Virus record (IMG/VR): IMGVR_UViG_2713896798_000007
Length of the DNA stretch: 47,837 bases
Source: a virus
Lineage: Duplodnaviria > Heunggongvirae > Uroviricota > Caudoviricetes
Reading direction: 5' to 3' (one strand)
Made by a program: the position numbers. Shown in pieces: positions 15,001 through 18,000 of the stretch. The stretch's first letter is position 1; every line of letters starts with the position of its first letter.

Positions 15001-18000
15001 TTCAAACTTCTGCAACTCGGATTCGATTACTGGACTCCGGTCGGTGGGGCGATCACTCCTCGCGAGCGAAAACTGGTGTCCGGTTTCGTTGATTATCTGT
15101 GCGAATCAGTAGGCCGGGAACATACGCCAGCTCTGAGCGAAGCCGCAGAGCAATATCTGAATACAGTTGCGACACGCAGAACCCGAGATACAGCATTGCT
15201 AAAGTCGTTTGAGGCTTTCCGCGAGTGGGTAACCATTCAGGCAGGATTTTACACCGAGCATATTTATCCTGATGGTAGTCGTGGGCGCAGGGCAAAATCT
15301 ATCGCATTTGCGAACATGGACGAAACCGAGTTTCAGCAGGTTTATAAATCTGTACTGAATGTGCTGTGGAACTGGATCCTGTTCCGTAAATTTTCCTCTC
15401 CGGAGGAAGTCGAAAATGTGGCCGCGCAGCTGCTGGAGTTTGCGTAATGGTGGATTTACGTAAAGCGGCAAAAGGTCAGATGTGTACAGTCAGAATTCCT
15501 GGCTACTGCAATCACAATCCCGAAACGTCCGTGCTGGCGCATTACAGGCTGGCGGGGACGTGTGGAACAGCGACAAAACCACACGATATGCAGGCGGCAA
15601 TTGCCTGTAGCTCATGCCACGATTTAATCGACGGGCGGGTAAAAACCAGCGATTACACCAAAGAAGAATTGCGCCTGATGCATGCAGAAGGTGTTTTTCG
15701 CACACAAGAAATCTGGAGAAAGGAAGGTTATTTATGATTTACCCAACAAATACAGGCAAAAGCGGGGAACGCCTTCGTCTCACCACGCTGGAAAGTGTCT
15801 GGATTCAGGGAAAACTGCGCATGTGGGGGCGCTGGTCGTATATTGGCGGCGGTAAGACGGGAAATATGTTCAACCAGTTGCTGACCTCTAAAAAGCTGAC
15901 AAAAACGGCAATTAACGAGGCGCTCCGGAGGATGAAAAAAGCAGGTTTGGACAAACCTGAACTTGAGGCTTTTTTGCGGGATATGATCAACGGCAAGCAA
16001 AAAAGCTGGCTGGTGCATTGTACTGATGCAGAGGCGTTATGCATTGATCGGGTGATTAGTGAAGTGCTGGCAGAACACCCAGGATTGATTTGTATCCTCC
16101 GGCAACGATATGAAGGGAGGGGGATGACTAAGCGAAAAATGGCTGAATTGCTGAATGATTCACACCCTGAGTGGTGTTTTCGGACGTGCTGCAGTCGGGT
16201 AGATGTATGGCTAAATCTTGCTGAATATATGCTCTATCTACCGATGCGTGATGCATTCTCTTCCGGGGATCTAAAAACCGTCTGTTGACTCAATCTGTTA
16301 TCCGGGGCTATATTCCTCACGCGCCAGCAAAATCTGGCGTCGGGATTGGAACCCCGGATAGAGACCGCGACAGACACACGCCGCGAGCGTGTTTTTTATT
16401 GTCGTATGCACGCGCACATCTGAATTATGGTGGGGCGCATGGGGGAGCTGAAAAGCTCGCCGGTCGGTTTCCCGGTAGTTCCAACCCTGTGCGTCTCACC
16501 ACCCGATGATTGGAACCTGATGGTGGTGATAGTTTAGAAACCACCAGAGGGCGTCATTATGACAACTCAAATTTCTGTTGAAACTCTCTCCCCGATCACC
16601 CATAACCGGATTCCTGTTATTACCACCGAACTTTTGGCGCAGCTTTACGGCACTGAGCCGGTGCGTATTCGCCAGAATCATCATGAGAACAAAGTACGCT
16701 TCGTTGAAGGGAAACACTTTTTCAAAGTTGTTGGTAATGACCTTAAAGAATTGCGGGTAGCTTTAAACTACTCACAAAATCCCATCTCTCCCAAAGCCCG
16801 CTCCCTTATCCTCTGGACAGAACGCGGAGCAGCCCGCCACGCAAAAATGCTCGAAACCGATCAGGCGTGGGATGTGTTCGAAAAACTGGAAGACTGCTAT
16901 TTCAGTCAAAAGGATCCGTCAGCGCCAGTTGCATGCCAGAAAAGTTACGACACGCGAGTTCTCTGTTATCAGTGAGGTGGTGTCACTGTTTCCACAATTC
17001 AGTTACGGGATGATGATATTGTTATTTCCCTTGAGTCATGGCTGGAACTGGCGAGAGCCAATGGTTGGTTTGTTGTTCGCAGAGATAAACTGGTGGAAAG
17101 GTTGATGCAGCTTTAAAAAAGTTCTTGCATTTTTGCACATAAACTGCTTCAATTCCGGTACGCTTCGCAAAGCTGTATCGCGAGGCGAACCAAGCGCATG
17201 AACTTTACCAGAACCCGCCATTGAGCGGGTTTTTTATTGCGGAATTAATTACGGACCGTTATTATTCTGCTCCCGGCCCTTTAGCTCAGTGGTGAGAGCG
17301 AGCGACGCATAATCGCCAGGTCGCTGGTTCGAATCCAGTACAACGCGCCACACTTATTTTCCCTGGCTCGCTTTTGCGGGCCTTTTTTTTAAATGTCTCA
17401 CAATTCAGGCGGTTGACTGTTGTCTGGTTTGCGGGGAGTTTGTTAAAAGAAACTGGCATGGTGAATCCCCCTGTGCGGAGGGGCAATCAGCAACCAGGTA
17501 TATGTGATAATCGCGGATTCAGGTGCTGATACTGAATTCACCGGGAGGCACCCGGCACCATGCAAGAAAAAGAATGTGCATGCAAACATGCCCCTCTCCG
17601 GAGGGGCATTTTTTATGGGTAAAAAATGCCCGAATGGGTTCGGGCAATAGCATGAGATACTGATATTGTTGTGTTGTTATCGTGTGGATTTTAACCAGGG
17701 TTTATCAGGCTGCGCAACTGCGTGGCCTTTTTTCATTTCTTGGGCTGTAGTCCCCGTGTGTCATTCAGGCTTCCGGACTACAGCCCACTCCATATCTGAT
17801 TTAATACACTATCCCGGCCGGGAGGAATAATGACATTTAAACATTATGATGTTGTCAGGGCGGCGTCGCCGTCAGACCTTGCGGATGCGCTTGCTCAAAA
17901 AATTCGTGAAGGATGGCAGCCATACGGCGGGCCGTTTTCTTCGTATACGGATGATGGCGCAGCACTTATTCAGGCGATTGTCGCAGAAGGTGATGTGAGC

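Follow-up and report, generated by a model that had tools for sequence, protein, structure and literature searches.

The window, by which we mean the whole 47,837-nt stretch of DNA analyzed here (IMG/VR virus record IMGVR_UViG_2713896798_000007), is a lambdoid prophage. Its first 24 kb are 99.9% identical over 89% to the ttcA-adjacent (Rac site) prophage of OkiPb01680-type genomes, and an Escherichia coli O121 record, RM8352, is collinear with it only over about 13.6-20.2 kb. Roughly 17 kb inside the prophage, a 76-nt transfer RNA (tRNA)-like element occupies the PR' "moron" slot, where phages encoding Shiga toxin (Stx) hold their tRNA operon and stx (Table 1). A preliminary description had characterized it as a degenerate tRNA downstream of Q with a CAT anticodon loop, possibly an ileZ-type phage tRNA in decay or else two tRNA halves joined in a chimera. 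Its placement was roughly right, since a Q-like gene does lie upstream, but an isrK/C4 RNA module and a truncated ORF6N antirepressor gene intervene. The two proposed identities hold together, as the element consists of the 5' two-thirds of ileZ joined to the 3' end of argO.

Anatomy and parentage of the element

The plus-strand sequence of the element is GGCCCTTTAGCTCAGTGGTGAGAGCGAGCGACGCATAATCGCCAGGTCGCTGGTTCGAATCCAGTACAACGCGCCA. Both the sequence and the Rfam alignment bear out the D- and T-arms, CAT loop, and 3' CCA within 76 nt that had been described. The ileZ-derived segment holds the 5' acceptor strand, the D-arm, the CAT anticodon arm (anticodon at 17308-17310), the variable loop, and the first T-stem base, G49, which is ileZ specific. 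The argO-derived segment supplies the remainder of the T-loop, the 3' strand of the T-stem, the 3' acceptor strand ACAACGC, and the discriminator G followed by CCA.

Table 1. Features of the chimeric element and of the surrounding prophage region
Feature	Position	Strand	Basis or remark
Q-like antiterminator gene (DUF1133 / Phage_antitermQ)	15734-16288		phrog "anti-termination protein Q-like"; upstream of the element
isrK/C4 RNA module	16308-16506	+	between the Q-like gene and the element, just upstream of the ORF6N gene
Truncated ORF6N antirepressor gene	16559-16975		between the Q-like gene and the element
Putative tRNA-operon promoter pT (TTGCGG, 17-nt spacer, TATTAT)	17237-17265	+	homology to the SC370 feature "pT; putative tRNA promoter"
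Whole chimeric tRNA-like element	17275-17350	+	ileZ 5' part joined to argO 3' part
ileZ-derived segment, tRNA positions 1-49	17275-17323	+	identical to SC370/Nil3 ileZ save position 33
G at tRNA position 33 (U in ileZ)	17307	+	secondary point mutation
CTGGTTC heptamer common to the ileZ and argO T-arms	17324-17330	+	contains the deletion crossover
argO-derived segment, tRNA positions 57-76	17331-17350	+	within 27 nt identical to Nil3/SC370 argO
Junction-specific 40-mer of the chimera			GCATAATCGCCAGGTCGCTGGTTCGAATCCAGTACAACGC
Intrinsic terminator, GGCTCGC-TTTT-GCGGGCC then T8	17365-17390	+	terminator scan; homologous to the SC370 post-argO terminator
STnc100 small RNA	17427-17620	+	146.8 bits; downstream of the chimera
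AgvB (anti-GcvB small RNA)	17621-17682	-	96.5 bits; convergent with STnc100
NanS-p-like esterase gene, 648 amino acids	17830-19776	+	DUF1737, SASA (sialate O-acetylesterase), and DUF6645 domains
IS66-family element	20304-22919	+	HTH transposase open reading frame, TnpB_IS66, 523-amino-acid DDE_Tnp_IS66

The parentage of the element was established by alignment to the ileZ, argN, and argO genes of lambdoid phages, a comparison that had been suggested at the outset. A blastn search of the phage collection returned hundreds of Stx-converting and other lambdoid phages in which 157 nt of the query align in two separate blocks across ∼330 nt, and the aligned stretches in those phages are annotated as tRNA-Ile (tRNA-Met in some records), tRNA-Arg, and tRNA-Arg. 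In phage SC370 (AF548457), these genes are annotated as ileZ, argN, and argO, together with a putative promoter, pT, and a terminator. Compared with the ileZ-argN-argO clusters of Nil3, SC370, and 1720a-02, the window is colinear on both sides of one clean gap. Positions 1-56 of the chimera match phage ileZ at 55 of 56 nt, the sole difference being G for T at position 33, and no difference from argO of Nil3 or SC370 occurs over positions 50-76; given this agreement at both ends, the match to tRNA is not due to chance.

Read 5' to 3', the bases specific to ileZ end with G49 (17323) and those specific to argO begin with G57 (17331), which places the crossover inside the CTGGTTC heptamer between them. 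The T-arms of ileZ and argO are identical at 18 of 20 positions over GGTCNCTGGTTCNAATCCAG. Measured against Nil3, 174 bp have been deleted, and against SC370, 176 bp; the lost sequence comprises the ileZ 3' end, the whole of argN, and two-thirds of argO from its 5' side. No intact tRNA gene combining the same full 76 nt with a complementary 5' acceptor strand was found in searches of phage, E. coli, and GTDB sequences.

The surroundings of the parental operon are retained on both sides of the chimera, with the pT-homologous sequence upstream and the argO trailer and terminator downstream. The downstream flank is close to that of Nil3, with 110 aligned nt after argO identical. The putative pT is weak; it is not listed by the sigma-70 consensus scan and was assigned only through homology to the SC370 feature. 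We also note, immediately 5' of the putative pT at 17212-17235 on the plus strand, a hairpin (AACCCGC-CATTGA-GCGGGTT) with a T-run after it. Inspection by eye and a sub-threshold Rfam Trp_leader alignment both give it a terminator-like appearance; it is absent from the list produced by the terminator scan, and it would insulate the tRNA unit from the antirepressor remnant.

Acceptor stem, tRNA finders, and folding

The preliminary description had noted that the acceptor stem does not pair by eye, and this proved accurate. The 5' strand GGCCCTT forms only 2 of 7 pairs with the 3' strand ACAACGC (G1-C72 and U7-A66), versus 7 of 7 in both ileZ and argO. An alternative 5' acceptor strand, CCGTTAT at 17256-17262, could form 5 of 7 pairs with ACAACGC, but it lies 12 nt too far from the D-arm and was rejected. 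The second departure from a functional tRNA is at position 33, immediately 5' of the anticodon, which is universally conserved, with U in nearly all tRNAs. The chimera has G at this position, and T is present in all intact ileZ copies.

Covariance models and tRNA finders treat the element differently. The Rfam tRNA model RF00005 matches 17281-17340 with 37.3 bits against a gathering score of 29 (E value of 2.3e-4 over the whole window and 1.4e-6 over a 301-nt stretch), but only as a local match, which spans 7-64 of the 71 model positions and leaves the acceptor stem outside. Within it, the D-, anticodon-, and T-arms are all present, including a GTTCRANYC T-loop, at a posterior probability of 1.00. 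The control genes all gave global matches, with 72.5 bits for ileZ, 68-70 for argO, and 50-55 for argN, so that the chimera reaches about half the score of its parents. With default settings, ARAGORN reported no tRNA anywhere in the window, and the pseudogene-sensitive runs that had been proposed (-ps, -ps80, and -ps60) also left the element uncalled, with -ps60 giving only spurious calls elsewhere. Restoring the ileZ 3' end in silico was alone sufficient to bring back a tRNA(cat) call by ARAGORN, and restoring U33 alone did not recover it.

Predicted folding agrees with this pattern. The minimum free energy of the chimera is -24.6 kcal/mol (z = -0.97) versus -33.5 kcal/mol (z = -4.0) for ileZ, which forms its full acceptor helix. 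Neither the 76-nt element nor the 125-nt putative transcript (z = -0.89) folds into a cloverleaf, and neither is more stable than shuffled sequence.

RNase P, TilS, aminoacyl-tRNA synthetases, and EF-Tu depend on the acceptor helix, and an RNA that lacks this helix should therefore not be a proper substrate for RNase P, TilS, a synthetase, or EF-Tu. We strongly infer that RNA from the chimera takes no part in translation. The element also differs from a full-length member of either parental family. The 3' strand of ileZ is AAGGGCC followed by discriminator A, where the chimera has ACAACGC and G; argO has a TCT anticodon, where the chimera has CAT, and identity to argO is confined to the last 27 nt. 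Given its acceptor stem and its lack of U33, we do not regard the element as a member of the ileZ, argO, or functional tRNA families.

Distribution and prophage context

One-piece matches of 160 nt were found at 166 places in 144 of 5,426 complete E. coli genomes, all of them chromosomal. The carriers are mostly E. coli strains that produce Shiga toxin (STEC), with labels including O121:H19, O157:H7 (e.g., TW14359, with the element at NC_013008.1 1752662-1752732), O111:H8, O111:H- 11128, O103:H2, and O45:H2. The exact junction is also present in 22 IMG/VR contigs, and it was found neither in the GTDB species-representative genomes nor among the sequenced phage records of the phage collection. 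We searched the literature on ileZ, argN, argO, and Stx-phage tRNA genes and found no description of the chimera. A study of Hfq cross-linking in enterohemorrhagic E. coli (EHEC) removed predicted tRNAs from its peak list and is uninformative on expression of the chimera (PMC4104026), and a Pas-sRNA preprint mentions tRNA hits near these loci only generally.

The chimera occurs in several flanking contexts, with at least three upstream and at least three downstream types. Upstream, it may be preceded by the Q-like DUF1133 gene and ORF6N remnant, as in the window, by a DNA methyltransferase gene, as in 933W-type Stx phages, or by a different antiterminator gene together with a hypothetical gene. 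Judged from these sequences, the identical junction and shared G33 point to one origin followed by prophage module exchange, and the tRNA sequence itself probably serves as a homology linker in that exchange. The chimera-bearing genomes listed contain 4 to 12 matching places each, the other places being annotated as tRNA-Ile or tRNA-Arg. Other prophages of the same genomes thus provide ileZ-type clusters that are intact, so that losing ileZ, argN, and argO at this locus is likely neutral.

The substitution at position 33 is common to the chimera copies examined, being present in all 7 aligned chimera loci (the window included) and in all 22 IMG/VR contigs. A synthetic query of intact ileZ carrying G33 had no exact full-length match in the 5,426 complete E. 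coli genomes; its best match was 104/105 among 7,490 places. A further change, G18 to A in the GG of the D-loop, is found in two copies from IMG/VR, L018 (about 4487-4562, plus strand) and L027 (minus strand). G18, like U33, is a universally conserved tRNA position, and changes at these two sites are as expected under relaxed constraint.

The STnc100/AgvB pair immediately downstream of the chimera matches an arrangement described for the PR' "moron" slot of EHEC prophages (PMC4104026). In the identical loci of RM8352 and OkiPb01680, the Prokaryotic Genome Annotation Pipeline (PGAP) places a partial "hypothetical protein" pseudogene at the equivalent of 17446-17589 on the minus strand, which overlaps STnc100 and looks spurious. 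The NanS-p-like gene holds the position of the stx and nanS-p genes in Stx phages. Farther downstream, the IS66 element is inserted after the esterase/DUF826 genes and ahead of the holin-lysozyme genes; ∼2.7 kb is missing here from the closest relatives, and the insertion may separate the lysis genes from the late promoter.

Elsewhere in the prophage, a second isrK/C4-antisense-RNA module lies in the early region (6958-7146, minus strand), at the 5' end of a Rha-family regulator gene, and the two oppositely oriented modules look like two antirepressor-control cassettes in one prophage. The same prophage carries a RalA antitoxin RNA of the Rac-type RalR/RalA system (1557-1735, plus strand) and, at 13170-13344 on the plus strand, a sok/hokD type I toxin-antitoxin locus; the ralR gene of the closest relative is interrupted by a stop.

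Origin of the chimera, alternatives, and comparison with known systems

We consider it highly probable that the element is a tRNA pseudogene that arose by deletion between the T-arms of ileZ and argO, is non-functional in translation, and is kept as neutral baggage. The starting point would have been the ileZ-argN-argO operon of lambdoid and Stx prophages, which has the Q antiterminator region on one side and the late genes on the other. Recombination between the near-identical T-arms, with a crossover in CTGGTTC, would have excised 174-176 bp and left a hybrid gene whose ileZ 5' acceptor strand is unable to pair with the argO 3' acceptor strand. The recombination could have proceeded through RecA-independent slippage or through phage RecET/Red acting on ∼20 nt of homology; the prophage encodes RecE/RecT, which are able to recombine short homologies. 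The dead gene would then have drifted at conserved tRNA positions, with U33 becoming G in all copies and G18 becoming A in some. Its neutrality would let it persist, and the recombination typical of this region would move it between prophage backbones.

Some observations run counter to this interpretation. As the putative pT and terminator are retained, an RNA of roughly 120 nt may be transcribed. Hardly any variation is seen in the 76 nt from copy to copy, and this could be taken as a sign of constraint. In addition, PGAP, whose tRNA calls are made with tRNAscan-SE, annotates a 71-nt tRNA-Met at 17280-17350 in every RefSeq match listed and does not flag it as a pseudogene. This call merely omits 5 nt of the unpaired 5' acceptor strand and does not describe a well-formed tRNA, so the element has not turned out to be an ordinary tRNA with other boundaries. 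With respect to invariance, intact ileZ and argO vary just as little in these phages and a single position separates the chimera from its parents, and a recent origin therefore explains the pattern equally well.

Retention of the flanking signals and of the sequence could alternatively reflect co-option of a noncoding RNA running from pT to the retained terminator and either mimicking a tRNA to decoy TilS, RNase P, or an anticodon nuclease or using its 3' trailer to sponge small RNAs, as tRNA external spacers do, which we consider unlikely. The near invariance of the core across 144 genomes and 22 viral contigs despite shuffled flanks would fit such a role, as would the promoter-like and terminator elements and the location in a PR' "moron" region rich in functional small RNAs, beside STnc100 and AgvB (PMC4104026). 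However, the invariance equals that of the parental genes and hence provides no signal, the predicted folds are no more stable than shuffled sequence, and the sole substitutions seen strike tRNA-conserved bases and preserve nothing identifiable. Moreover, no sequenced isolated phage in the phage collection has the chimera. A more specific form of this idea, in which the pT transcript accumulates uncharged and unprocessed and benefits the prophage by titrating, for example, an anticodon-loop nuclease or TilS, or by sponging through its trailer, and in which U33G is adaptive rather than decay, strikes us as less probable still.

The crossover within a 7-bp identical T-arm core also invites the explanation that the junction is a scar left by a tRNA-targeting integrase that used the ileZ/argO T-arm as its attachment site, the hybrid being an att-type junction. 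A core of this size and place is typical of the overlap regions used by tyrosine integrases in tRNA genes. Against this, colinearity with intact clusters holds on either side, the junction contains neither foreign DNA nor an integrase gene, ∼17 kb separate it from the integrase of the prophage at the ttcA end, and a plain deletion between direct repeats 174-176 bp apart explains everything; we regard an integrase scar as very improbable. Least credible of all is the reading implied by RefSeq, that of a functioning tRNA-Met or tRNA-Ile(CAU) whose acceptor stem is unusual, which would accord with the unflagged PGAP calls, the RF00005 score above the gathering threshold, and the intact D-, anticodon-, and T-arms and CCA end, but which is contradicted by the mismatches at 5 of 7 acceptor positions with no alternative 5' strand nearby, the change of U33 to G, the lack of an ARAGORN call at any threshold tried, a local Rfam match at about half the parental score, and a sequence that is plainly the deletion product of two genes with different identities.

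As a kind of thing, the tRNA pseudogene is ordinary, and biologically it is a minor, neutral relic. It matters chiefly for annotation, since RefSeq labels it tRNA-Met in every record listed and it occurs in at least 144 complete E. coli genomes, which brings a dead gene into STEC prophage tRNA counts and codon-supply arguments and hides the fact that this prophage has lost ileZ, argN, and argO. The chimera also provides a clean, datable example of how the near-identical T-arms of neighboring tRNA genes act as deletion substrates in phage tRNA operons. Its unique junction together with G33 forms a single-origin marker that might help in following how the Q-to-lysis module is exchanged among O157, O121, O111, O103, and O45 prophages.

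The closest known system is the intact ileZ-argN-argO operon of SC370 (AF548457), Nil3, PA2, and 933W-type phages, which occupies the same slot between the Q/PR' region and the late or moron genes and is bracketed by the same putative pT and terminator. Unlike that operon, the chimera is one hybrid gene rather than three, with argN absent, acceptor strands that do not pair, and G in place of U33. Prophage-associated tRNA fragments are also known from E. coli K-12, where partial pseudogenes of the pauD/ptwF type at prophage attachment sites are 3'-end duplications made by integrase at the border. The chimera resembles these in being a non-functional, prophage-associated piece of tRNA that is prone to be picked up by tRNA finders, but it lies inside the prophage, keeps the 5' part, and was made by deletion between neighboring phage tRNA genes. 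It is not an attL or attR fragment, given its location between the Q-like and lysis genes and the presence of the 5' two-thirds of the gene, and the integrase gene of the prophage, intR, lies at the ttcA end.

Regulatory RNAs derived from tRNAs offer a further comparison, as the 3' external transcribed spacer of a tRNA operon can act as a small RNA sponge. RNA from the chimera would likewise come from a tRNA operon transcript with its trailer and terminator kept. A final parallel is found in EDL933 (L013, 1437-1536) and JNE25-005 (L012, 677-773), where argN has decayed and lost its PGAP and Rfam calls while ileZ and argO remain intact. As at our locus, a tRNA gene has been lost from the same operon within resident prophages; argN decayed in place through substitutions and small indels, whereas the chimera stems from a single recombinational deletion. 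Because argN decays by point changes and indels elsewhere, erosion of this phage tRNA operon is recurrent and follows more than one route.

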